Assembly: GCA_943788505.1 (NCBI GenBank)
Contig: CALSQR010000002.1
Location: forward strand, 569,213-633,212
DNA length: 64,000 nt
Reading direction: 5' to 3'
DNA from: an uncultured bacterium
GTDB lineage: Bacteria > Bacteroidota > Rhodothermia > Rhodothermales > UBA10348
Shown here: positions 36,235 through 49,648 of the stretch, piece by piece
How the letters are laid out: the number at the start of each line of letters is the position of its first letter
How positions within the stretch are numbered: the first letter of the stretch is position 1
Position numbers and translations under genes: made by a program
Notes under the pieces: model-generated
What the model saw: only the letters and a program-made list of their open reading frames with translations
The model's database searches: none
What the model was told of the DNA's origin: nothing

Positions 36235-36810
36235 ATGTCTGACACACGCTATTCAACAGCCCTGCATATCCTCGTCTTGCTTTCAGCAGAGCGCGACGAG
36301 CACCATACCTCAACGTCTATTGCCGAGCAGTTGGGCACCAATCCTGTGGTCGTGAGACGTTTGATGGCAGACCTCTCGCGAAGCGGGCTCGTAGAGACGC
36401 GCCGTGGTGCTGGTGGCGGTGTATCACTCAAAATGGATCCCTCTGAGATCTCGCTGGGCGAATTAGCTGATGTGATTGAAGCTGACCTCACGTTTGATGC
36501 GCACAAACTGCCAGATGAGATAGCTGATCCGGCTGATGTCCCGATGAATGGTGCAGATCTGGCTTTGGGCCCGCAGGATGACGGAAAAGATCATCTCCCA
36601 GATGCTATTCTACGGACGATTGAAGCGCAGCGACGCGAATTACACACCGCTGCTATCATTCAAATGGACAGGATGACGTTGAAAGACCTTACACAGGCCG
36701 CGACATTACGTGCTGACCTCGCGACGCTCGTTGCCAGAGGACTTTCTGATGCTGATATTCGCTCCGGCTACCATATCGAGAGCGGACGACTAGTGCCGAA
36801 CGAGCCATGA
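36235..36810 (+). CDS. Rrf2-family transcriptional regulator (extended C-terminus)
   Basis: YSTALHILVLLS...TSTSIAEQLGTNPVVVRRLMADLSRSGLVETRRGAGGG is the Rrf2 wHTH signature. Confidence 0.7.
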   Translation: MSDTRYSTALHILVLLSAERDEHHTSTSIAEQLGTNPVVVRRLMADLSRSGLVETRRGAGGGVSLKMDPSEISLGELADVIEADLTFDAHKLPDEIADPADVPMNGADLALGPQDDGKDHLPDAILRTIEAQRRELHTAAIIQMDRMTLKDLTQAATLRADLATLVARGLSDADIRSGYHIESGRLVPNEP

Positions 36811-36964: not shown

Positions 36965-39454
36965 TTGAACGGTTTTCCCCATCAGCCCACATCGATTTCC
37001 TGGTTATCTGATCTGTCTCCTCTCTCATCCATAGTTCAAACGCTACCCGAGCACTTGAGCGAAAGGGCGCGGCCACTGTCGAATCGCGAGTCTAATCCGA
37101 AAGGGACATTCGTTTTGTATTGGATGCATCATGCGGTGCGTGCCGATGAAAATCCAGCACTAGATACTGCGGTTGCACTGGGCACGATTATGGATTGCCC
37201 TCTTTTGGTGTATCAAGGGCTTTCTGGCAATCACCCATTCAATTCCGATCGGCATCACACCTTCATTTTAGAAGGCGCTCGTGACGTGCACTTTCAACTG
37301 AAGGAACGAGGCATCAGGCATGCCTTCCACCTCGGTCAAAACCCGTCTATTCCTGGGCCACTGCGCAATCTGATTGACACGGCAAGTGTAGTAGTGACAG
37401 AGGACTATCCAGCACCTCCATTCAAGCGATGGACCCAACGTTTGCATGATGAGTCATCGACCCCCTTTCTGCTCGTAGACGCACACTGCATATTGCCGAT
37501 GCAGCAGGTCGGCAAAGGATATGGCCGAGCCTACCACTTCAGGAATAGGATTGGCGATGAGGTACTTGATCGAGCATCTCGTGCGTGGCCACTCATAGAC
37601 GCTACCCCTGCATCGCCGTCAATTAGTGAAGTAGGGTTTGAGCCTATTGATTGGGAATCGGCCAGGATTTGTGACCTAGTTGCTGCGTGCCAGATTGATC
37701 ATTCCATTGGTCCTGTACCCCACACAGTTGGCGGATCCTTGGCAGGGTACAGCCGATGGGGCGTTTTCCTTGAGCACGGGCTTACTCGATACGCCCGGCA
37801 TCGTAATGATCCGACTGCCGAGCATGGCGTGAGCCGTATGAGTGCCTATCTGCATCACGGACACGTATCGCCTTTTCGACTTGCGCGAGAAGCAGCCATT
37901 AAGGGGTCAGAAGGCGCAACAAAATTTCTGGACGAGTTGCTGATCTGGCGCGAGCTTGCTTTCAATCTTTGCTTTTACAACGACGGCCTTTCAACCCTTG
38001 AGATCTTACCCGATTGGGCCCGAAAGACCTTCGCTGCGCACGAAACGGATGAACGAGAGTCGACCTATTCGTGGGAAGAACTTGCTCGGGCTAAAACTGC
38101 TGATCCATTGTGGAATGCAGCCCAAACCTCGCTGGTTATCCATGGCGAGCTGCACAATAATGTCCGGATGACATGGGGAAAGGCTGTACTGGGATGGACT
38201 CGGAACGCAGAAGAAGCCTTAGAAATGCTCTTAGACCTAAATCACCGATATGCGCTTGATGGATCAGATCCGAACTCATGGGCAGGAATTCTGTGGTGCC
38301 TCGGCCTTCTCGATCGACCATTTTTCCCAGAGCGGCCCATTCTAGGCTCCGTTCGACCGCGATCATCGAAACGACATGCCGAGCGGATGGATATGTCCGC
38401 TTATGAGCGCAAAGTCTCTCGGCCGGCCCGGCCTGATAGCCCGACCGTAGCTGTCATTGGCGCCGGGCCGGCCGGTCTCATGGCCGCCCGGACCCTGCGA
38501 GACCATGGCCTTGAAACGACGGTATTCGACAAAGGACGGGGTCCGGGCGGCCGCACCTCCACCCGCAGAGATGCTGACCGTTCATTCGATCATGGTGCAC
38601 CCTTTTTCACCCTTACTGATCCCCGTCTCTCCCGGCTGAAAGAATCCTGGAAAGATCAAGGCTTGATCGCTCCTTGGCCAGCGCCAAGCCAAGAACCCCA
38701 AACTTGGACGGCAATCCCCACGATGAGCGCGCTGGCTAAGCATCTCGCCAGTGATTGCAGGCTACTCACCAATACACGCGTAACATCTCTGAACAGGAAA
38801 GATGATGAGTGGTGGATCTCGGCTGAGCAGTTATCCGACGAGCAGACGTACGGACCTTTCGATGCCGTCATTGTAGCGATTCCACCCGAACAAGCAGCTG
38901 ACCTCGTCTCTGCATCGGCCCACCTCCATGACACAGCAACATCCGTGCATTCAGAAGCGGTTTGGTGCGCTGCCATTACGCTTGGTGAGGGCCTTTCGGT
39001 ATCAGAAAACGTAATGAACTCTGCGTCTGGCCCCCTGTCATTGGCCATTAAGAACTCAGCAAAACCCGGCCGCGACGCAGGTGAAACGTGGGTTCTTCAT
39101 GCGAGGGCCGATTGGACTGCGGCGAATATGGAAGCTGAGCGCGAGGACGTCATCGCAAACCTCTGTCGAGAATTTTTCGACATGGTGGGTTGTGCTCCAC
39201 AAGAAATTACCCATTCCATGGCTCATCGGTGGAAGTATGCCCAGGCATCTAACCCCTTGAAAATCGAAAGTGATTGGGATGAGGAGCTCCGCCTGGGGCT
39301 TTGCGGCGAATGGCTACATGGCGGCAGTATCGAAGGCGCCTTGCTTTCTGGCATGGCGGCTGCCGGACGAATAGTGGGTATGCCGCCCATTCGGATGATA
39401 TCTGTCGGCACCGGTTTACAACAGAATCTCTTCTCGCTGGAGGGATCTAAATGA
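36965..39454 (+). CDS. Fusion protein: class II CPD photolyase (N, ~1-500) + renalase-like NAD(P)/FAD-dependent oxidoreductase (C, ~505-829)
   Basis: N-terminal class II photolyase motifs VLYWMHHAVRADENPAL, SRMSAYLHHGHVSPFRLAR, LIWRELAFNLCFYND, DPLWNAAQ, NNVRMTWGK and DPNSWAGILWCLGLLDRPF. There is no stop or start codon before the C-terminal part, which has a Rossmann motif VAVIGAGPAGLMAARTL plus FDKGRGPGGRTSTRR and FDHGAPFFT (renalase-like). Confidence 0.75.
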   Translation: MNGFPHQPTSISWLSDLSPLSSIVQTLPEHLSERARPLSNRESNPKGTFVLYWMHHAVRADENPALDTAVALGTIMDCPLLVYQGLSGNHPFNSDRHHTFILEGARDVHFQLKERGIRHAFHLGQNPSIPGPLRNLIDTASVVVTEDYPAPPFKRWTQRLHDESSTPFLLVDAHCILPMQQVGKGYGRAYHFRNRIGDEVLDRASRAWPLIDATPASPSISEVGFEPIDWESARICDLVAACQIDHSIGPVPHTVGGSLAGYSRWGVFLEHGLTRYARHRNDPTAEHGVSRMSAYLHHGHVSPFRLAREAAIKGSEGATKFLDELLIWRELAFNLCFYNDGLSTLEILPDWARKTFAAHETDERESTYSWEELARAKTADPLWNAAQTSLVIHGELHNNVRMTWGKAVLGWTRNAEEALEMLLDLNHRYALDGSDPNSWAGILWCLGLLDRPFFPERPILGSVRPRSSKRHAERMDMSAYERKVSRPARPDSPTVAVIGAGPAGLMAARTLRDHGLETTVFDKGRGPGGRTSTRRDADRSFDHGAPFFTLTDPRLSRLKESWKDQGLIAPWPAPSQEPQTWTAIPTMSALAKHLASDCRLLTNTRVTSLNRKDDEWWISAEQLSDEQTYGPFDAVIVAIPPEQAADLVSASAHLHDTATSVHSEAVWCAAITLGEGLSVSENVMNSASGPLSLAIKNSAKPGRDAGETWVLHARADWTAANMEAEREDVIANLCREFFDMVGCAPQEITHSMAHRWKYAQASNPLKIESDWDEELRLGLCGEWLHGGSIEGALLSGMAAAGRIVGMPPIRMISVGTGLQQNLFSLEGSK

Positions 39455-40110
39455 GCGCAAACGAACCCAGCAGCTTGATCATTGGAATTGACCTCTCAGG
39501 CCCATCAAATCCCGCTGACACTGTTGTAAGCCTATTCAGCGAATACACTGATCGGCTCGAATATATCGGGCATTATGAGCATTGCTCTGACGCTGACATC
39601 GTCCGACTCCTAGAAAAAGCCTCGTCCCACCTTCATGTGACCATCGGATTAGATGCACCGTTGTCCTATCAGGACGGAGGCGGAGATCGGATGAGCGATC
39701 GGTCGCTCAGAAAAGTACTCATGGGTGCTGGGATGCCCTCTGGAACGGTCATGACGCCAACCATGACGCGCATGGCGTATCTGACGTTGCGGGGAATCAC
39801 GATAGCGCGTCTTCTACGATCATTACATGCTGATGCTAACATCGTTGAAGTCCATCCGCATGGCAGTATGGCCTTAGCAGGTGCGCCCATCGAATTGGTC
39901 CGTACTATGAAAGCGGAGGCAGCAAGCCGTCAGGGACTTGCTCATTGGCTTGGCTCACAAGGCCTTGCTAGACTACCTGAAGGGCCACATTCAGATCACG
40001 TGATTGCCTCAATTGGCTGTGCTTTTGCAGCCTGGCTCTGGCAAACCGGCCGAAGTACTTGGAAAGCTGCAGCTATCCCGCCTCATCACCCGTTTGACTT
40101 CGCCTGCTGA
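39451..40110 (+). CDS. DUF429-like protein (predicted RNase-H-fold)
   Basis: IGIDLSGPSN N-terminus. The start overlaps the upstream stop in an ATGA arrangement. Confidence 0.45.
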   Translation: MSANEPSSLIIGIDLSGPSNPADTVVSLFSEYTDRLEYIGHYEHCSDADIVRLLEKASSHLHVTIGLDAPLSYQDGGGDRMSDRSLRKVLMGAGMPSGTVMTPTMTRMAYLTLRGITIARLLRSLHADANIVEVHPHGSMALAGAPIELVRTMKAEAASRQGLAHWLGSQGLARLPEGPHSDHVIASIGCAFAAWLWQTGRSTWKAAAIPPHHPFDFAC

Positions 40111-40137: not shown

Positions 40138-41376
40138 ATGACCCCACACGTTCTCATTATTGGTGCCGGCCTTTCCGGACTAAACTGCGCTCTTGAGCTG
40201 CAGAAAAAGGATATACCGTTCACTATTCTGGACTCCTCTGATGCGGTCGGTGGCCGTATCAGGACGGATAACATCGATGGCTTCCGCCTTGATCGGGGAT
40301 TTCAGATTTTTCTTACCGCCTACCCCGAAGCCCGCGCAGTACTGGATTATGATGAGCTGAATCTGCATTCATTTAGACCCGGGGCTATGGTTCGGCTAAA
40401 CGGGAAATTCCGCCTTTTATCGGACCCCCTGCGTCGTCCCCAAGATGTCTTTTCAACCCTGTTTTCCGGAGTGGGCACACTGCGAGATAAATTGAAGGTC
40501 GCAATGATGAGGAGGACTCAAGATGGTAGCATGTCTACCGGTCCAGAAACCTCCATCATGGAAAAGCTGCAGACGACTTGGGGCTTTTCGGCTGGTATGA
40601 TCGATAGTTTTTTCAAGCCCTTCCTTGGGGGCATCACGCTCGATGAAAACCTGGGTACGTCTAGCCGTTTCTTCGATTTTGTGATGGGAATGTTTACTAA
40701 AGGGAAGGCTTCCTTTCCAGCAGGGGGCATGCAAGCCATTCCAGAGCAAATGGCAGCCAAACTGCCAGCCGAATCCATCATTCTAAAGGCTCGCGTGACA
40801 GCCATCAACGGATCCCACGAGGTCATTTTAGAAGATGGCCGGCGATTCGAAGGAAGCCACGTCGTACTTGCCACAGGCATGACCGATGCTCTGGCACTGG
40901 ACCCTGGAGCTACTGAGCGCACATGGAACGGTACCACGTGTCACTACTTCGCAGCCGACGCAGCGCCGTTCAATGAACCGGTCCTCCTATTAAATGGTGA
41001 GCCCGGCCGAAGTAGCGGATCAATCAATTCCATCGTCGTCCCGTCGAATGTGGCGCCTGGGTATGCGCCAAAGGGACAGCATCTCATCTGCCTTAGTAGT
41101 ATTGGCGTTGACGAGTCAGATGCTTCGAAACATCGTGAGCGGGTCCTAACGGAGGCTGCCTCCTGGTTTGGAGACGAGGTAAGTACCTGGCGGCATCTCC
41201 AGACCTACCGAATTACCCATGCTCTTCCGCGCATGGATACGCTTCCCGATTCTCCTCCTATCAGAGTGCTTGACTCGGGAATAATCCAATGTGGCGACCA
41301 TCTTTCCACCTCTTCCATTAATGGTGCATTGGCCTCTGGACGCCATGCAGCGGACCATCTACAACAGACTCTTTGA
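40138..41376 (+). CDS. NAD(P)/FAD-dependent oxidoreductase (amine-oxidase/desaturase-like)
   Basis: Rossmann motif VLIIGAGLSGLNCALEL followed by LDSSDAVGGRIRT. Confidence 0.7.
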   Translation: MTPHVLIIGAGLSGLNCALELQKKDIPFTILDSSDAVGGRIRTDNIDGFRLDRGFQIFLTAYPEARAVLDYDELNLHSFRPGAMVRLNGKFRLLSDPLRRPQDVFSTLFSGVGTLRDKLKVAMMRRTQDGSMSTGPETSIMEKLQTTWGFSAGMIDSFFKPFLGGITLDENLGTSSRFFDFVMGMFTKGKASFPAGGMQAIPEQMAAKLPAESIILKARVTAINGSHEVILEDGRRFEGSHVVLATGMTDALALDPGATERTWNGTTCHYFAADAAPFNEPVLLLNGEPGRSSGSINSIVVPSNVAPGYAPKGQHLICLSSIGVDESDASKHRERVLTEAASWFGDEVSTWRHLQTYRITHALPRMDTLPDSPPIRVLDSGIIQCGDHLSTSSINGALASGRHAADHLQQTL

Positions 41377-42125
41377 CTATGACATCTCCTGACTCTCCAG
41401 TCGTCATCATTCTTGGTGCTACCGGCGGCATTGGCTCCGAAGTCGTGAATCGCCTATCAGCCCGTGGTTGCAACCTTGTCCTGGCGGCACGCAACGAGAC
41501 TAATCTCAGCTTGTTGGCAACTCGCACCGGCGCAATGGCCATACCAACGGATGCAACAGATCCCGATCAAGTCCAAGCACTTGTTCAACAAACGGTACAG
41601 CATTTTGGGCGGATAGACGCAGTCGTTAATTGTGTCGGATCTATCCTGCTTAAGCCAGCCCACTTGACATCAATCGATGAATACAGGGAGACGATGGCTC
41701 TCAACCTGGACTCTGCCTTCTTCGTCGTCAAGCATGTCAGCCGAGCTATGATGAAAACCGGTGGGTCCATTGTCTTGTGCTCATCTGCCGTCGCTCGCAC
41801 GGGCCTGTTTAACCACGAAGCCATTGCAGCCGCCAAGTCTGGGATCGAAGGACTGGTCAGAGCCGCAGCTGCCACTTATGCTCAACGAGGCATCCGCGTA
41901 AACTGCGTTGCTCCTGGCTTAGTAGAAACACCACTAAGTGCGCGCTTGACCGCTAATGAGGCTTCCCGGGCCACTTCCGAAGCTATGCATGCACTCGGGA
42001 AACTAGGTACTCCAGGGGATGTGGCTGAAGCGATCGATTGGTTAGTCGATGGCACCCGAAGTAGCTGGGTTACGGGGCAGGTAATTGGAGTCGACGGCGG
42101 GTTAGGATCTGTTCGCCCTCGCTAA
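41373..42125 (+). CDS. Short-chain dehydrogenase/reductase (SDR)
   Basis: TGGIG cofactor motif, NCVG, a catalytic YxxxK-type region (AAAKSG) and an ATGA overlap with the upstream gene. Confidence 0.8.
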   Translation: MTMTSPDSPVVIILGATGGIGSEVVNRLSARGCNLVLAARNETNLSLLATRTGAMAIPTDATDPDQVQALVQQTVQHFGRIDAVVNCVGSILLKPAHLTSIDEYRETMALNLDSAFFVVKHVSRAMMKTGGSIVLCSSAVARTGLFNHEAIAAAKSGIEGLVRAAAATYAQRGIRVNCVAPGLVETPLSARLTANEASRATSEAMHALGKLGTPGDVAEAIDWLVDGTRSSWVTGQVIGVDGGLGSVRPR

Positions 42126-43151: not shown

Positions 43152-43781
43152 TTGATTTACATGACATCCGAATTCATGCTCTACCTGCGCCTGGGATTTG
43201 AACATATTTCCGACCTGAATGGATATGATCACATCCTTTTCGTGATCGCACTGGCTGCCGTCTACCCGTTGAAGGAGTGGCGGCATCTTCTAATTCTCGT
43301 GACCGCATTCACGATTGGCCACTCCATCACACTTGCCATGGCCACGCTTGGCTGGCTCGCAGTGGATTCCGATCTGATTGAAATGCTGATCCCTGTCACC
43401 ATTTTCATCACGGCCGTCATCAACATAGCAGAACGGTTTGCCAGTGACGCAGAAAAGGCGTTGCAACGAGATTGGCGTATGAAATATGCGCTGGCGCTGG
43501 GATTCGGCCTGATCCACGGCTTGGGCTTTTCCAACTACCTTCGCGCGTTACTCGGGACAGGCGAAAACCTTGTCTTACCATTGTTTTCATTCAATGTTGG
43601 ATTAGAAATTGGCCAACTTGTCATACTTGTCATTACATTTGTAATATCGGCCGGAGTGATCTGGATTTTAGACTGGGTTCTGAACCGGTTCAATCGGCCC
43701 GTTGCGAATACCCAGCGTAACTGGGCAGCGGGGCTTTCTGTTGTGATTGCCATCCTTGCCCTGACCATGATATGGTCCTAG
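43152..43781 (+). CDS. HupE/UreJ-family membrane protein
   Basis: 209 aa, about 6 TM, with a His-containing N-terminal motif (GFEHI..DHILF). Confidence 0.55.
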   Translation: MIYMTSEFMLYLRLGFEHISDLNGYDHILFVIALAAVYPLKEWRHLLILVTAFTIGHSITLAMATLGWLAVDSDLIEMLIPVTIFITAVINIAERFASDAEKALQRDWRMKYALALGFGLIHGLGFSNYLRALLGTGENLVLPLFSFNVGLEIGQLVILVITFVISAGVIWILDWVLNRFNRPVANTQRNWAAGLSVVIAILALTMIWS

Positions 43782-43847
43782 CCAGGTCCTTCTTAGGATC
43801 CGTAAGACCTACTGAGAGGCTGCACTGCAACCGTTAACCATACGCAC

Positions 43848-45986
43848 GTGCCAGCTATGAAAGCTTATCTGTTTACGACTTTCACCCTCCTATTGGTCGT
43901 CCTTTTCGCCCTCCCAACTGCCTCCGCTCAGAATTGGCGGAATATCGAAGGGGACATAGCGTCAGGCAACCATTCGATATTCAGGCCGCTTGCTGATTGG
44001 CCAGATGCAAACGATTACCGCTCCGCTTCCGGTGCTCCAGGAGCTCGCTACTGGCAACAACGCGCCGACTATGTGATCGAGGCTGAGATCGACACTGTAA
44101 ACCATGTAATGACAGGTAGCGAACGGATTACGTATCACAATAACTCTCCGGACGAACTTGGATTCCTGTGGGTTCAGCTCGACCAGAACGTGCGCTCACT
44201 CGAGCATAGTCGTTCCTATCAGATGCAGGGTGCCTTGCCGGAAAACATCAGTCCAGGATTCAGACGCTTCGTCGGCGTTGGACAATTTGATGGCGGGTAC
44301 GAGATAACCCGAGTCCAGTTGGTAGATGATGCTGGTCGCCTCGTCGACACATCCTTCCGAATCCGCGACACCATTATGCGTGTCAATCTTGCCGAACCAC
44401 TAGCTGCTGGATCAAGCATGTCCTTTGATATCGATTGGTCCTATCGCATTCCGGACAGCGGACGTGGAGGAAAGGAAATGGTGCGCGATGGTTGGCTCTA
44501 TGAAATGGCTCAGTGGTTTCCCCGCATGTCTGTTTATGACGATGTGAATGGCTGGCAAACGGAGCAATTCATCGGGCGAGGAGAATTCTACCTCAACTTC
44601 GGCGATTATGACGTTAAGTTAACCGTTCCTTGGAATCACATCGTTGATGCAACGGGCGAATTACAGAACCCGGAAGATGTACTTACCGAAGACCAAATGC
44701 AGCGTCTGGAAGCTGCGTACCAGAGCGAAGAACCTGTATATATCGTTGGGCCAGATGAGGTTATGACACCAGAGTCTCGTCCAGTTCAGCGCGGTATGTT
44801 GACTTGGCATTACGTAGCCAAAGATGTACGCGACTTCGCATGGGCCTCATCCAAAACCGATATATGGGATGCTGCCGGATACGACTACAAAGATGGCGGC
44901 CCCATTGTGAAAGCCCACTCCTTGTATCCAAAAGACGCGTCTCCACTGTGGGACAAGGTCTCTACACGTGCAACGATCGTGACACTCGAGTCTTATGGCG
45001 ACATGTCGCTTCGCTATCCGTATCCCAAGGCCGTTAACGTGAACGGACCCGTAGGAGGTATGGAATACCCGATGATTGCTTTCTGTGGTGCCCGTCCGGG
45101 ACCCGATGGAACGTATTCGGACGGAGTAGAGCGCGCCCTGATTGGCGTTACGATTCACGAAGTTGGTCATAACTGGGTGCCAATGATCATCGCGTCGGAT
45201 GAACGCAAGTGGACCTGGATGGATGAAGGGCTAAACACCTTCTTGCAGTACTACGCAGAGCAGATATATGCCATGAAGTTTAATGGCACGGATGTTTGGA
45301 CGCAGACCACGGATGGTACCTACCCATCACGCCGTGGCCCCGCACCACTGATTGTACCGTACATGAAGGACCCCAACCAGGTGCCCATCATGACCGAGTC
45401 CGATCTGATCCAGAATAACTTTGGCAACAACGGCTATGCCAAGCCAGCAGCTGGCCTGTACATGCTTCGCGAGCATATTCTGGGCGCGGATGTTTTTGAT
45501 GACGCCTTCCGCGAGTACTCACGCCGGTGGGCCTTCCGCCATCCACAGCCTGCCGACTTCTTCCGCTCCATGGAGGAAGCAGCCGGAGAGAACTTGAATT
45601 GGTTCTGGAGAAGCTGGTTCTACACGACGTATGCAAACGACCAGGCATTAGCCGCCGTCACGGAACAGTCCGCTGATTCTCTACTCGGCTCGACCGAAAA
45701 CGGGGAGTGGTACTACCGTGTCAAAGTGGACAACGAAGGCCAGCAAATCATGCCGATTCATTTGCGTGTGACGTACGAAGATGGATCGGATGATATGATC
45801 CAGCTTCCGGCTGATGTTTGGCGTAGCAATGAACTCACCTTTACTAAAGGATTCTTCTCCGACAAGAAAGTCATGAAAGTGGAGCTCGATCCGCTCGGTG
45901 CCTTCGCTGATATCGATCCGAGCGACAACGAATGGAACGCACCCGAGGTCGAGACGGAACAGGAAGAAACCGGAGGTGGTTTCTGA
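43848..45986 (+). CDS. Secreted M1-family zinc metallopeptidase
   Basis: Signal peptide, a GAMEN-like GGMEYPM and HEVGHNW-x17-E (HExxH+E) zinc-binding arrangement. Confidence 0.7.
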   Translation: MPAMKAYLFTTFTLLLVVLFALPTASAQNWRNIEGDIASGNHSIFRPLADWPDANDYRSASGAPGARYWQQRADYVIEAEIDTVNHVMTGSERITYHNNSPDELGFLWVQLDQNVRSLEHSRSYQMQGALPENISPGFRRFVGVGQFDGGYEITRVQLVDDAGRLVDTSFRIRDTIMRVNLAEPLAAGSSMSFDIDWSYRIPDSGRGGKEMVRDGWLYEMAQWFPRMSVYDDVNGWQTEQFIGRGEFYLNFGDYDVKLTVPWNHIVDATGELQNPEDVLTEDQMQRLEAAYQSEEPVYIVGPDEVMTPESRPVQRGMLTWHYVAKDVRDFAWASSKTDIWDAAGYDYKDGGPIVKAHSLYPKDASPLWDKVSTRATIVTLESYGDMSLRYPYPKAVNVNGPVGGMEYPMIAFCGARPGPDGTYSDGVERALIGVTIHEVGHNWVPMIIASDERKWTWMDEGLNTFLQYYAEQIYAMKFNGTDVWTQTTDGTYPSRRGPAPLIVPYMKDPNQVPIMTESDLIQNNFGNNGYAKPAAGLYMLREHILGADVFDDAFREYSRRWAFRHPQPADFFRSMEEAAGENLNWFWRSWFYTTYANDQALAAVTEQSADSLLGSTENGEWYYRVKVDNEGQQIMPIHLRVTYEDGSDDMIQLPADVWRSNELTFTKGFFSDKKVMKVELDPLGAFADIDPSDNEWNAPEVETEQEETGGGF

Positions 45987-46006
45987 TCTGACATCCTATT
46001 GCGGAT

Positions 46007-46048
46007 AATAGGTGCGGCGGCCTGCGGCCGCCGCACCTATTCCGTTTA
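46007..46048 (+). terminator. Rho-independent terminator (16-bp perfect stem)
   Basis: aataggtgcggcggcc tgc ggccgccgcacctatt followed by ccgttt. Confidence 0.55.
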
Positions 46049-46052
46049 TACC

Positions 46053-46595
46053 ATGCTTCAACTGCTGACATCCATATTCCTCGCCCTTCTCCTCATCGTT
46101 AACGGCGACACCTCACCTGCTGCATTAAGCGATGATGAGGCCCCTCGTCACGATTTCCACGTTACGTATAGTCGGATGGCCGTCGAAAACGACATGGCCG
46201 TAGTCCGAATTCGCTTATTCAAGGACGACCTTTCTGAAGCGCTCAGCAAACGGCTGGATCGAGACGTTATCGTAGATATTTCCCCTGAAAGCGACTCGTT
46301 ATTTCAGGTGTACTTCAATGAAAGCGTTTCACTGGTCGTTGGCGAGGAAACCTTGGCGGGCAACCTGGTCGGCAGCGGGGAAGAGTACGTTGGAAAAGAG
46401 CCAATGTGGTGGTATCTACTCGAATTCAAGGCCGATGGCCCCATTGAAGGATTCACTATCTCCCAGAAAATCCTCTCTGAGATGTTTCCCGAGCAAAAAA
46501 ACATTGTCCAGGTTCAACATTTCCCCAGCGAGAAGACGTACTCCTTGTATTGTGTTGAGGACTCATGGGAATACGAAGTCTCTTTTACGGACTGA
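46053..46595 (+). CDS. Hypothetical secreted protein
   Basis: Start moved to MLQLLTSIFLALLLIVNG, a signal peptide, because the track start overlaps the terminator. Confidence 0.3.
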   Translation: MLQLLTSIFLALLLIVNGDTSPAALSDDEAPRHDFHVTYSRMAVENDMAVVRIRLFKDDLSEALSKRLDRDVIVDISPESDSLFQVYFNESVSLVVGEETLAGNLVGSGEEYVGKEPMWWYLLEFKADGPIEGFTISQKILSEMFPEQKNIVQVQHFPSEKTYSLYCVEDSWEYEVSFTD

Positions 46596-46709: not shown

Positions 46710-47810
46710 GTGCCTGTTTACCTTCATGCTGCCCGGACCATCGTCCCGGAAACCTCCTATACCCAGGATGAGGCAGGCGAAGTCATGCTACGCTCGCTGG
46801 ATCCTGAAAGCCGTGCTGGACGGCTTGTCCGGCGCATCTACCGGCATTCTGGCATCGAGAAACGGCACAGCGTCATTCGCGACTTGAAAGAGCCGGCCGA
46901 TGGCAACTTGTTCTTTTCGAAGGAGGGCAAGTTCTTATCCCCCTCTACCGGCACTCGGAATGACGTCTACGCCCGGGAGTCACGTCCGCTCTTTGTAGCA
47001 GCTGCGAAGGCTGCCATCGACGCGAGCCCCGAGCATGAGGCCTATGACGTTACGCATGTCATTACGGTGTCCTGCACCGGATTCAATGCGCCCGGACCCG
47101 ACTATTTTATTGTTCGAGACCTGGGTTTGAAGCCGGAAGTCCGCCGCTTTCACATCGGCTTTATGGGTTGCTATGCCGCGTTCCCAGCGCTCCGCATGGC
47201 CCAGGCCTTCTGTGAAGCAGACCCGAATGCGGTTGTGTTGATCGTCTGTTTGGAGCTCTGCTCCTTGCATTTGGAACCGTCCGAAGAAATCGACGACATC
47301 CTGGCCTTTTCTGTGTTCGCAGATGGTGCTGCCGGTGTCATTGTAAGCGCCCGAGAACCCGGTTCGAAGGGCGCGCTGCGCATTGACGCTCTAGAATCAA
47401 CTATCGCACCGGACAGCGAAAGTGACATGGCCTGGACGATTGGAGATAAAGGATTCAAAATGGTCCTCTCCACGTATGTGCCGAAGGTCCTGGAATCCAA
47501 CGTGAAAGACGTCGTGGATAGCGTCCTCACGCCATCGGGACATACGATGGAAGACATCGACCAATGGGCGATCCACCCCGGCGGTCGCGCCATTCTTGAC
47601 CATGTGGCTAGTGGTCTTGACCTAGCTGCCGATGCACTCGATACCTCACGCGCCGTTCTACGCGATTATGGCAATATGAGCAGCGCAACCGTCCTGTTCG
47701 TACTCTCTGCCATGCTGGATGACGAAGCCGTCAAGGAAGATGACCATATTTTGGCGATGGCGTTCGGACCCGGCCTCACCGTTGAAACAGGTCTTTTTAC
47801 ACGCGTCTGA
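46710..47810 (+). CDS. Type III polyketide synthase (chalcone/stilbene synthase family)
   Basis: Active-site Cys context (VSCTGFNAPGPD), the GFMGCYAAFPALRMA segment and His/Asn regions (IHPGGRAILD, FGPGLT). Confidence 0.85.
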   Translation: MPVYLHAARTIVPETSYTQDEAGEVMLRSLDPESRAGRLVRRIYRHSGIEKRHSVIRDLKEPADGNLFFSKEGKFLSPSTGTRNDVYARESRPLFVAAAKAAIDASPEHEAYDVTHVITVSCTGFNAPGPDYFIVRDLGLKPEVRRFHIGFMGCYAAFPALRMAQAFCEADPNAVVLIVCLELCSLHLEPSEEIDDILAFSVFADGAAGVIVSAREPGSKGALRIDALESTIAPDSESDMAWTIGDKGFKMVLSTYVPKVLESNVKDVVDSVLTPSGHTMEDIDQWAIHPGGRAILDHVASGLDLAADALDTSRAVLRDYGNMSSATVLFVLSAMLDDEAVKEDDHILAMAFGPGLTVETGLFTRV

Positions 47811-48506
47811 ATGCCCACTCTGTTCTTGTCATCCCGCCGCGAGGATCTCGTCGAGCTCATGGACGATCCGGAGTGCGACAGGGAGTTGCTGGAAAACACC
47901 TACCGGTGGTTCGAAAAACTGAACCCTCTTCTGGCCAGGTGGCGAAGCGTCTACTGCCATAGAATTCGCCCCTTGCTCGACCCAACCACGTCGACCCGCA
48001 TTCTTGATGTTGGTTGCGGTGGTGGCGACTTGGCCAGGCAGTTGGCTCGATGGGCAGCACAAGATGGCCTGAAGGCTGACATCACAGGCATCGACCCCGA
48101 CCCCAGAGCGATACACTTCGCCCAGTCTCGACCGAATCCAGACGATGTCCACTTCTTGGAACTCCATTCAGCGGATCTGGCGCGCCGAAATGCGACGTTC
48201 GATATTATCCTGTCCAACCACGTCCTGCATCATATCAAAGATGAGCATTTGGTCGGGCTGATGAAGGATTGCGAAGCCTTGAACGCCCGGCTCGTGATCC
48301 ACAATGACATCAATCGAGATGACCTTGCATGGCTGCTGTTCTGGCCAGTTGGCCTCGTTTGTAGGAAGTCCTTCATCTTGTCCGATGGTTTGCGCTCCAT
48401 CCGCCGTTCCCGGACCGCCCACGAACTCGACCGGATCGCACAAACCGGCTGGTCAGTCGAGCGTCTTTTCCCGTTCCGCTGTCTCCTCATCTTTGAATCG
48501 GAATGA
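47811..48506 (+). CDS. SAM-dependent methyltransferase
   Basis: Motif I ILDVGCGGGDLARQL. The gene directly abuts the PKS stop codon. Confidence 0.7.
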   Translation: MPTLFLSSRREDLVELMDDPECDRELLENTYRWFEKLNPLLARWRSVYCHRIRPLLDPTTSTRILDVGCGGGDLARQLARWAAQDGLKADITGIDPDPRAIHFAQSRPNPDDVHFLELHSADLARRNATFDIILSNHVLHHIKDEHLVGLMKDCEALNARLVIHNDINRDDLAWLLFWPVGLVCRKSFILSDGLRSIRRSRTAHELDRIAQTGWSVERLFPFRCLLIFESE

Positions 48507-49648
48507 CCAGTAACGTGATCATTGTGGGTGGTGGGCCAATCGGGCTATATCTGGGGTGTCTTCTCCGCAATAAGGGACTCGAATGTCTGATTCTCGAAAA
48601 GCGGGTCGAGCGCAGCACCCACTCTCGCTCCATCGGCATCCACCCACCCGCGCTTCGCCAGTTGGCACAAGTCGGCATTGCAGATGATCTCGTCAAAAGA
48701 GGCATCAGGGTTAAGGAGGGTGATGGCTATCTCGGCTCCAAGCCCCTGGGAAGCTTGCCCTTCTCATTGTTGCCGCCTCCTTACTCATTTGTGCTGACCC
48801 TTCCACAACACGAAACGGAATCGCTCCTGGAAGCCCGCTACATTGAGCTTGGCGGTCGATTGGAGAAAGGAGTCAGTGTGACAGGACTGGAACAGGACGC
48901 GGGCTCGGTCGATGTCATCGCAACGAGATCTTCAGGCGAAGAGAGGCTAACCTGCGATTGGCTCATCGGCTGTGATGGCCGAAACAGCACGGTCCGGGGC
49001 CTCCTTTCCATTCCGATGCTCGGATCGTCCTACAACGACCATTACATGATGGGAGACTTTGAGGAGGCTCGAGAGCAGTCCGCTCGCGCAGCAATCCATC
49101 TGGGTTCGAAAGGGGTCGTAGAGTCGTTCCCCTTGGGCCATGGGCTCCGACGATGGGTCGCACGGGTCGAGCAGCCCCACAAGAGCGCTACCCATGCAGA
49201 TCTCGTGGGCTTGCTCACTAGGCACGTTCAAGAACGGACTGGTGTGACTCTGGCTCATGACGCCTGTATCATGACAAGTGCCTTCACAGCCGAACGATTC
49301 GAAGCCAAGGAATTCGCTTCCGGCCGCGTTATCCTAGCAGGCGATGCCGCGCACATCATCAGCCCCATTGGCGGACAGGGCATGAATCTCGGATGGCTGG
49401 ATGCCCAACTACTTGCTGAACTGCTTCACTCGAAGGACGGAGTTGCACTCAAACCCGAAGCAATTCAAGCAGCCTACGAGCCCGTTCGACGCCGATCTTT
49501 CCGCCGGGCTGCCCGCCGAGCAGAACTGAATATGTGGATGGGGCGGTCAGGATGGCTCTACCCCGCGCGTGCGCTCATGGCGCGACTGATACTGAGCCGA
49601 CCATTGCGCGGCTATTTCGTTCGGCTATTCACTATGCAGGACCTTTGA
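48503..49648 (+). CDS. FAD-dependent monooxygenase (UbiH/aromatic-ring hydroxylase family)
   Basis: Rossmann motif VIIVGGGPIGLYLGCLL, a DG motif (CDGRNSTVR) and the GD motif (AGDAAHIISPIGGQGMNLG). The start overlaps the methyltransferase stop in an ATGA arrangement. Confidence 0.8.
   Translation: MTSNVIIVGGGPIGLYLGCLLRNKGLECLILEKRVERSTHSRSIGIHPPALRQLAQVGIADDLVKRGIRVKEGDGYLGSKPLGSLPFSLLPPPYSFVLTLPQHETESLLEARYIELGGRLEKGVSVTGLEQDAGSVDVIATRSSGEERLTCDWLIGCDGRNSTVRGLLSIPMLGSSYNDHYMMGDFEEAREQSARAAIHLGSKGVVESFPLGHGLRRWVARVEQPHKSATHADLVGLLTRHVQERTGVTLAHDACIMTSAFTAERFEAKEFASGRVILAGDAAHIISPIGGQGMNLGWLDAQLLAELLHSKDGVALKPEAIQAAYEPVRRRSFRRAARRAELNMWMGRSGWLYPARALMARLILSRPLRGYFVRLFTMQDL

Follow-up and report, generated by a model that had tools for sequence, protein, structure and literature searches.

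A class II photolyase fused to a renalase-type FAD oxidase in a Rhodothermales genome and in other bacterial phyla

The fusion reading frame

The DNA analyzed here, referred to as the window, is a stretch of 64,000 nucleotides from an uncultured bacterium of the Rhodothermales (Bacteroidota; UBA10348), corresponding to positions 569,213 to 633,212 of contig CALSQR010000002.1 (GenBank assembly GCA_943788505.1). It carries a gene in which a class II cyclobutane pyrimidine dimer (CPD) photolyase and a renalase-type FAD oxidase are encoded, one after the other, by a single open reading frame (ORF). The gene and its segments are the following:

36965..39454, + strand: fusion ORF, 829 codons plus stop, TTG start (ORF listing)
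36965..38419, + strand: class II CPD photolyase half, aa 1-485, conserved core from about aa 27
38420..38443, + strand: linker RPARPDSP, aa 486-493, of fixed length
38444..39451, + strand: renalase-type FAD oxidase half, aa 494-829, the fold ending at about aa 805

The probability of meeting 829 stop-free codons by chance is about (61/64)^829, which by our own arithmetic is about 5e-18. On the same strand, stops number 34 and 47 in the two other frames, and several fall where the halves join; any single-base insertion or deletion (indel) at this place would therefore truncate the fusion. An earlier note on this DNA had described a single uninterrupted frame of 829 codons, composed of a class II photolyase and of a renalase-type enzyme. 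The frame was recovered as one ORF containing all the motifs quoted there, and both assignments agree with the profile, sequence and fold searches reported below. The same note had stated that no ATG separates the halves; this has to be corrected, as M475 (nt 38387) and M477 (nt 38393) are in frame, 17-19 codons 5' of the Rossmann strand. An internal start at either position, which would produce a separate renalase, was judged unlikely and is not conserved, because at least one of the two residues is Leu in several homologues.

A short linker, also proposed in the earlier note, does exist; its true extent is about 8 residues (R486-P493) and not KVSRPARPDSP. In the AlphaFold model it is placed between the last photolyase helix (H477-484) and the first Rossmann strand (E494-498). 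When 78 fusion proteins were aligned, exactly 19 residues were counted between the columns of Y480, the last conserved photolyase Tyr, and of G499, the first Gly of the GxGxxG motif, in 76 of them, and the junction was found to be without indels.

In most database versions this protein (P0001, 776 aa) begins with M54. This start was rejected, since it would remove E33, R34, Y52 and W53, all invariant or nearly invariant, together with the LPxHLxER motif. The TTG at 36965 is the sole canonical start upstream of this conserved motif; a protein of the same 90%-identity cluster at NCBI (MDA0682859.1) is likewise 829 aa long, and full-length homologues cover 91-99% of the fusion ORF. The calls at M54 thus look like a systematic mis-annotation of the start codon, caused by the use of TTG. 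The same protein, or near-identical copies of it, is found on 39 contigs, one of which is 2.84 Mb long.

The photolyase half

The N-terminal half matches the NCBIfam model TIGR00591 (phr2) over aa 33-483, with an E-value of 7e-100 and almost complete coverage of the model (positions 6-452 of 453). In a search of PDB sequences, the class II photolyases of Methanosarcina mazei (E 1e-61) and rice (E 5e-55) were aligned over aa 34-486, and the class I photolyase of Thermus gave a far weaker match (E 4e-11). The predicted structure of this half (pLDDT about 95) has the photolyase fold, composed of an alpha/beta domain and a helical FAD domain, and by Foldseek it reaches TM-scores (TMt) of 0.85-0.90 to the M. 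mazei (MmCPDII) and rice class II structures.

Residues important for class II enzymes were compared by using M. mazei numbering, which is consistent with that of the W388F and Y345F mutant entries (5o86, 5o8d). All of R256, N257, E301, W305, Y345, W360, M379, W381, W388, N403 and W421 have conserved equivalents, and in the 78 fusion proteins most of these are invariant. We take W381, W360 and W388 to form the class II-specific Trp chain, together with Y345, and Asn403 to lie at the flavin N5, roles that reportedly go back to Kiontke et al. 2011; R256, E301, W305, M379 and W421 are the contacts to the CPD lesion. The electron-transfer residues are aligned and identical within DPLW, RMTW, VLGW, LNHR and TYSW, and W383, W404, W411 (equivalent to W388) and N426 of the fusion are invariant. 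The lesion contacts correspond to R280, E324, W328, M402 and W444, the first four being invariant and the last one kept in at least 90% of the fusions.

The half resembles the known class II enzymes (MmCPDII, PDB 2XRY/8OET; rice, 3UMV) in its fold, in the full-length match, in the electron-transfer chain and in the lesion and FAD contacts. It differs from them in being only about 31% identical, in motifs of its own, namely YWMHHAVR and ELHNN[VL]RMTWGK, the latter replacing GKMHGYMRMYWAK, and in bearing an extra flavoenzyme of 345 residues at the C-terminus.

The renalase half

The C-terminal half and Pseudomonas renalase (4zcc/3kkj) match from end to end, with an E-value of 5e-50 (query 7-316 against chain 5-324), as expected for the enzyme type proposed earlier and not for a non-enzymatic accessory domain. 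Human renalase follows (E 3e-7); the first match to a protein other than a renalase is to protoporphyrinogen oxidase (E 2e-4), limited to the Rossmann motif, and other enzymes of the amine-oxidase fold are likewise aligned solely at the dinucleotide-binding motif. Pfam assigns NAD_binding_8 and Amino_oxidase. The structural comparison by Foldseek gave TMt 0.89-0.90 and a root mean square deviation (rmsd) of 1.7-2.0 Å to 4zcc, 4zcd and 5krq, a set of renalase complexes with NADH, NAD+ and NADPH.

Identity to 4zcc is 34.5%. When only columns conserved in at least 95% of the fusions are considered, 35 out of 38 are identical in 4zcc. GAGPAG, GGR, FDHGA, HRW and IEGA are all present, so that the GxGxxG, GGR, D-x-GA, HRW and EGA motifs are shared with Pseudomonas renalase; in contrast to it, this half is fused and not stand-alone, and an 11-residue gap of the window protein lies opposite 'pllynfhggrl' of 4zcc. 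Over its whole length the window protein departs from the 95% consensus of the fusions at only 5 positions. At position 782 it has Glu, where at least 90% of the fusions have Asp.

Distribution and architecture of the fusion family

A scan of genomes, limited to one genome per species, returned 80 fusion loci. In 77 of them the fusion is one uninterrupted ORF, coding for 771-959 aa, the other three being cut by contig ends. The loci come from at least 8 phyla. The hosts include numerous Pirellulaceae and further Planctomycetota, one of which is the cultured Stieleria marina K23_9, for which a complete genome is available (NZ_CP036526); Desulfobacterales; Gammaproteobacteria (Chromatiales, Competibacterales and Granulosicoccaceae); Alphaproteobacteria (Geminicoccaceae and Rhodospirillales); Acidobacteriota, Myxococcota and Bacteroidota/Rhodothermales. 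A word-indexed protein search produced, among the matches listed, 119 further clusters of 766-907 aa, 46-57% identical to the query and covering 91-99% of it. Finally, when the 143 residues across the junction were used as query, 136 representatives of 50%-identity clusters aligned with them in one piece at E<=1e-30, and more did so below this threshold. On these data, the fusion represents a large, old and widespread bacterial family.

The view that the architecture is genuine, already expressed in the earlier note, is thus confirmed by its recurrence, no hidden stop being present at the junction, and the search for the same fusion in other genomes that had been suggested there gave a positive answer. 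The opinion that such an enzyme is not described stands in part: no paper on a photolyase-renalase fusion was found in the open-access literature (7.7 million papers) and bioRxiv, whereas the sequences are abundant in databases under generic names, such as 'photolyase PhrII', 'FAD-dependent oxidoreductase' and 'NAD(P)-binding protein'. A bioRxiv paper on COG3380 was considered and discarded, as it concerns a different, two-photolyase operon.

An AlphaFold2 model of the whole chain was built from the 78-sequence alignment. Over the 829 residues the mean predicted local distance difference test (pLDDT) is 91.7 and the predicted TM-score (pTM) is 0.92; no entry covering both halves was found by Foldseek among the best 50 PDB matches listed. 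Since the junction is without indels, the spacing is fixed and the pTM is high, a single ancient origin of the fusion is suggested, and the model suggests that the geometry between the two domains may be constrained.

In several shorter representatives of about 410-470 aa (P0256, P0263, P0276, P0307, P0311 and others) the junction segment begins at residue 29, which would place the start of these proteins close to the invariant Met of RMTWGK (M402). Rather than a real shorter isoform, they are probably the result of gene calling on contigs truncated at the 5' end.

Stand-alone renalase genes and their neighbours

Renalase homologues that are not fused were also analyzed. Two Pseudomonas proteins, one a 95% identical orthologue of the crystallised renalase (P0128) and the other 80% identical to the 4zcc query (P0202), are each encoded at the head of a co-directional array. 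The renalase gene is followed by DUF2389, DUF523/DUF1722 (RudS-type), a MerR/B12-binding regulator (LitR-like), a class I photolyase and SnoaL, and then by a short-chain dehydrogenase/reductase (SDR), an amine oxidase, DUF1365, a protein similar to cyclopropane fatty acid (CFA) synthase and DUF2878. In both groups renalase lies about 2.2 kb upstream of the LitR-like regulator and the class I photolyase. A light-inducible operon encoding PhrB, LitR and RudS has been described (PMC11417400); the phrB locus of P. syringae belongs to a singlet-oxygen-responsive regulon of the sigma/anti-sigma (ChrR) type (PMC5507510), and in Pseudomonas the phrB cluster is light- or singlet-oxygen-inducible (PMC9758184, PMC11417400, PMC5507510). 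The stand-alone renalases of Pseudomonas and Burkholderia are found inside or beside light-stress islands of this kind.

As an independent sample, 9 stand-alone homologues located on plasmids or chromids of other genera were taken. A photolyase-family gene was found within 7 kb in 3 of the 9 loci (Burkholderia, Novosphingobium and Asticcacaulis), against a chance expectation per locus of well under 1%, a rough figure that assumes few such genes per genome of 4-6 Mb. The photolyase-family partners of stand-alone renalases belong to different classes, namely class I, FeS-BCP and a protein with FAD_binding_7 only. In the island of Burkholderia anthina, renalase is accompanied by an FeS-BCP-type gene, MerR, a class I photolyase, an extracytoplasmic function (ECF) sigma factor, FolE, DUF2256 and CFA synthase/DUF1365; in Novosphingobium humi, FeS-BCP, a second photolyase-family gene and DUF2256 lie at 1.5-5 kb from it; in Asticcacaulis, renalase overlaps the start of a protein in which FAD_binding_7 is the only photolyase domain. 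As for the loci with no photolyase-family gene nearby, in Rhizobium tumorigenes DUF3429 and a sigmaE-ChrR pair come after renalase, in Polymorphobacter it follows a rhodopsin/beta-carotene dioxygenase pair, and the remaining ones have FolE, DUF2256, SDR or KatG nearby. The fusion makes permanent a linkage between renalase and photolyase that is present, unfused, in other bacteria.

A few observations were made on single loci of this set. The FeS-BCP/DPRP-type gene of B. anthina (plasmid NZ_CP071828; L087, 8083-9539, - strand) was detected as two separate tblastn segments, within a stretch of 1.8 kb, with no gene listed, directly after the renalase homologue; a pseudogene with a frameshift, or a sequencing error, is the probable explanation. 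A 548-codon ORF in the same gap was rejected as a candidate, having no Pfam match, tblastn pointing to the FeS-BCP-type gene instead. The FAD_binding_7-only protein of Asticcacaulis sp. DW145 (plasmid; L086, 7923-9095, + strand) is 390 aa long and is without the N-terminal alpha/beta domain, and is as such a cryptochrome/photolyase-family member of unusual, truncated form. DUF3429 lies next to or near stand-alone renalase in Sphingobium, Asticcacaulis, Burkholderia and two Rhizobium loci (L085-L092), a pattern that resembles an uncharacterised module of renalase and DUF3429. Genes for FolE, AarF/UbiB kinase and fasciclin-domain proteins are likewise recurrent in the same set of loci.

Neighbours of the fusion in other genomes

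The ORFs of the 80 genome loci and of the window were clustered, and cluster representatives were annotated by using Pfam. The families recurring near the fusion are listed below, with the number of loci:

SDR, the commonest neighbour: 24 loci (23 genome loci and the window)
FeS-BCP/DPRP photolyase-related proteins: 13 loci
NmrA-DUF2867: 10 loci
Fpg/Nei glycosylase: 8 loci
155-aa membrane protein: 8 loci
Amine oxidase of the type found in the window: 7 loci, including the window
Additional FAD_binding_7 photolyases/cryptochromes: 6 loci
DUF2256-DUF3253: 6 loci
Alpha/beta hydrolase: 6 loci
SOUL: 5 loci
DUF429: 4 loci, including the window

The neighbourhoods of the fusion are islands of light- and UV-damage genes. 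Around the fusion they contain gene families (photolyase, SDR, an amine-oxidase-family flavoprotein, DUF2256 and alpha/beta hydrolase) that also occur in the LitR/PhrB operon of Pseudomonas and in the sigmaE-ChrR core regulon of Rhodobacter and others. The amine oxidase and the SDR of the window are only 24% and 29% identical to those of Pseudomonas, and at these levels their orthology with the Pseudomonas/sigmaE-regulon genes is not demonstrated.

Proposed function and alternative explanations

The fusion is a Rosetta-stone joining of two known flavoenzymes. We consider it rather probable that the product is a bifunctional, two-flavin enzyme for the repair of light damage, predicted both to split CPDs and to re-oxidise 2-/6-dihydroNAD(P); the two-headed photodamage-repair protein proposed in the earlier note is thus a reasonable reading. 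In the photolyase half, blue or near-UV light would excite the reduced FAD, from which an electron would be transferred to a flipped-out CPD, leading to its splitting. The renalase half would accept a hydride from mis-reduced 2-/6-dihydroNAD(P), giving back usable NAD(P)+, and its electrons would be passed to O2. Both halves would thus handle consequences of one insult, illumination, and would have been fused because both are needed under it; the fusion would hard-wire the co-expression of two halves that presumably act independently.

Such a function implies that light would be the in vivo source of the dihydroNAD(P) isomers. When NAD(P)+ is reduced non-specifically, by photochemical or electrochemical means, 1,2- and 1,6-NAD(P)H are formed; these isomers are potent inhibitors of dehydrogenases and are oxidised and recycled by renalases (PMC7660482). 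The presence of the fusion in at least 8 phyla, together with the repeated linkage of renalase to photolyase-family genes and to sigmaE-ChrR/LitR islands, provides a guilt-by-association argument for light, which would be a major bacterial source of damaged NAD(P) cofactors. To our knowledge, neither the physiological role of renalases nor the cellular source of 2-/6-dihydroNAD(P) is settled.

Several results weigh against this proposal, or against parts of it. The N-terminal half scores 335.4 bits with TIGR00591, under the curated cut-off of 550.05, and for this reason represents a divergent class II subfamily; the divergence probably explains the generic name given by NCBI. Evolution is faster in the renalase half (mean pairwise identity 0.47, vs 0.60 in the photolyase half), that of the window is somewhat more diverged (mean identity 0.41), and the window copy is without the residues found after APWPA in most other fusions (alignment A1). 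A linker with a fixed length of 8 residues, along with the high pTM, suggests a defined geometry between the domains, for which co-expression alone would give no reason. Finally, in the accessible part of the work on P. mendocina, the light-inducible transcript starts at PME6650, listed as a hypothetical protein; the cluster as described there names no renalase gene, and light induction of renalase is not documented in it.

The first alternative, which appears rather unlikely, is that the C-terminal half, while retaining the same fold, oxidises a compound other than dihydroNAD(P). A reduced heterocycle generated by light would be a candidate, such as a dihydropyrimidine lesion or the reduced form of a deazaflavin or pterin antenna cofactor. 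This explanation is in accordance with the low identity to the characterised renalase, with the faster evolution of this half, with the fewer residues that the window clade has after APWPA, and with the frequent presence of FolE, the first enzyme of pterin synthesis, beside stand-alone homologues; according to the titles of entries 4cdn and 4cdm, the class II photolyase of M. mazei was crystallised with an 8-HDF deazaflavin antenna. It is made doubtful by the 35 of 38 conserved positions that are identical to the Pseudomonas 2-/6-dihydroNAD(P) oxidase and by the close superposition on the renalase complexes with nicotinamide cofactors, and no renalase is known to use another substrate.

According to a second alternative, which appears unlikely, the two halves would form a redox relay, the renalase half being a built-in photolyase reductase that keeps or restores FADH- without photoactivation. 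The donor would be NAD(P)H isomers or another dihydropyridine, and the electrons would be passed to the terminal Trp or to the FAD of the photolyase. The identical length of the linker and the junction free of indels would fit such a mechanism, as would the arrangement of the domains, which the model predicts with confidence to be fixed; the association of renalase genes with class I and class II photolyases, FeS-BCP and an FAD_binding_7-only protein would fit a shared need for reduced FAD. On the other hand, renalase homologues mostly occur as stand-alone proteins, and of the 9 plasmid loci sampled, 6 lack any photolyase-family gene within 7 kb. Moreover, characterised renalases pass on the electrons after the FAD, O2 being the acceptor, with no partner protein known. 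In one account water is named as the final acceptor for renalases (PMC7660482).

We hold as quite improbable the stronger proposal that reducing equivalents taken by the renalase half from photodamaged NAD(P)H isomers feed the Trp chain or FAD of the photolyase, so that waste made by light would recharge the repair flavin. If a relay were true, it would provide a physiological reductant for a photolyase and a general physiological role for renalases; we know of no physiological reductant established for any photolyase.

The merging of two adjacent genes by an assembly or sequencing indel, or a decaying gene, for which the in-frame ATGs just before the linker are the sole hint, can practically be dismissed, given the uninterrupted ORF in independently assembled genomes, including the complete one of S. 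marina, the in-frame junction of fixed length, the 39 contigs with the same or a near-identical protein and the key residues kept in both halves.

Whichever explanation applies, hundreds of 'FAD-dependent oxidoreductase' or 'photolyase PhrII' entries could be re-annotated, many of them with truncated start codons, and the fusion, as a natural two-flavin protein with an apparently fixed geometry, could be used to address the enzymatic reduction of photolyase in the dark.

The locus in the window

The genes flanking the fusion in the window are the following:

36235..36810, + strand: Rrf2-family regulator (Pfam Rrf2, E 7.5e-24)
39451..40110, + strand: DUF429 gene, its start overlapping the stop of the fusion (ATGA)
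40138..41376, + strand: flavin amine-oxidase-family gene, 412 aa (Pfam Amino_oxidase, E 4.5e-41)
41373..42125, + strand: SDR gene, overlapping the preceding amine-oxidase gene by 4 nt

The fusion is the probable head of an operon including DUF429, the second amine-oxidase-family flavoprotein and the SDR; a convergent alpha/beta hydrolase gene, located after the SDR, ends the unit. DUF429 is probably in the same operon as the fusion, to which it appears, from the overlap, to be translationally coupled. A DUF429 gene also adjoins the fusion in the three best matches to the window protein obtained in the genome scan (L001, 12448-13098; L002, 2251-2946; L003, 8427-9122), and no relative of the DUF429 protein was found in the PDB. 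The 412-aa amine oxidase, used as a specificity control, aligns with renalase at no more than the dinucleotide-binding motif (E 1e-4), and is, as judged from its sequence, not a renalase; its family is found near the fusion in 6 other loci.

The Rrf2-family gene ends 154 bp upstream of the fusion. Its product is 191 aa long, compared with the 132 positions of the Pfam model, and is free of cysteine, for which reason it cannot be an Fe-S-sensing Rrf2. This gene is not among the recurrent neighbours of the fusion in the 80 genome loci, and its membership of the unit is uncertain. Its upstream position distinguishes the window from the LitR/PhrB and sigmaE-ChrR islands: no LitR/CarH-type, sigmaE-ChrR or ECF sigma regulator is present between positions 33.5 and 50.3 kb of the window, and DUF1365 and CFA-synthase genes are also absent from the locus. 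A scan of the region 35.8-42.6 kb for sigma-70 consensus promoters and terminators gave no more sites than shuffled sequence.

Just 3' of the photolyase cluster (43152-46595, + strand), genes for HupE/UreJ_2, an M1-peptidase-like protein of 712 aa and DUF6702 are found. A gene annotated as 'urease operon accessory protein', with no Pfam match (L092, 6279-6914), lies directly upstream of the stand-alone renalase of R. tumorigenes; the occurrence of HupE/UreJ_2 near the fusion and of this gene near renalase may be a coincidence. Further downstream in the window (46710-49648, + strand), a type III polyketide synthase (366 aa), an S-adenosylmethionine-dependent methyltransferase (231 aa) and an FAD_binding_3 monooxygenase (381 aa) are encoded by a tightly packed trio of genes, which has the appearance of an operon for making a small molecule, perhaps one of the alkylresorcinol or alkylpyrone class.

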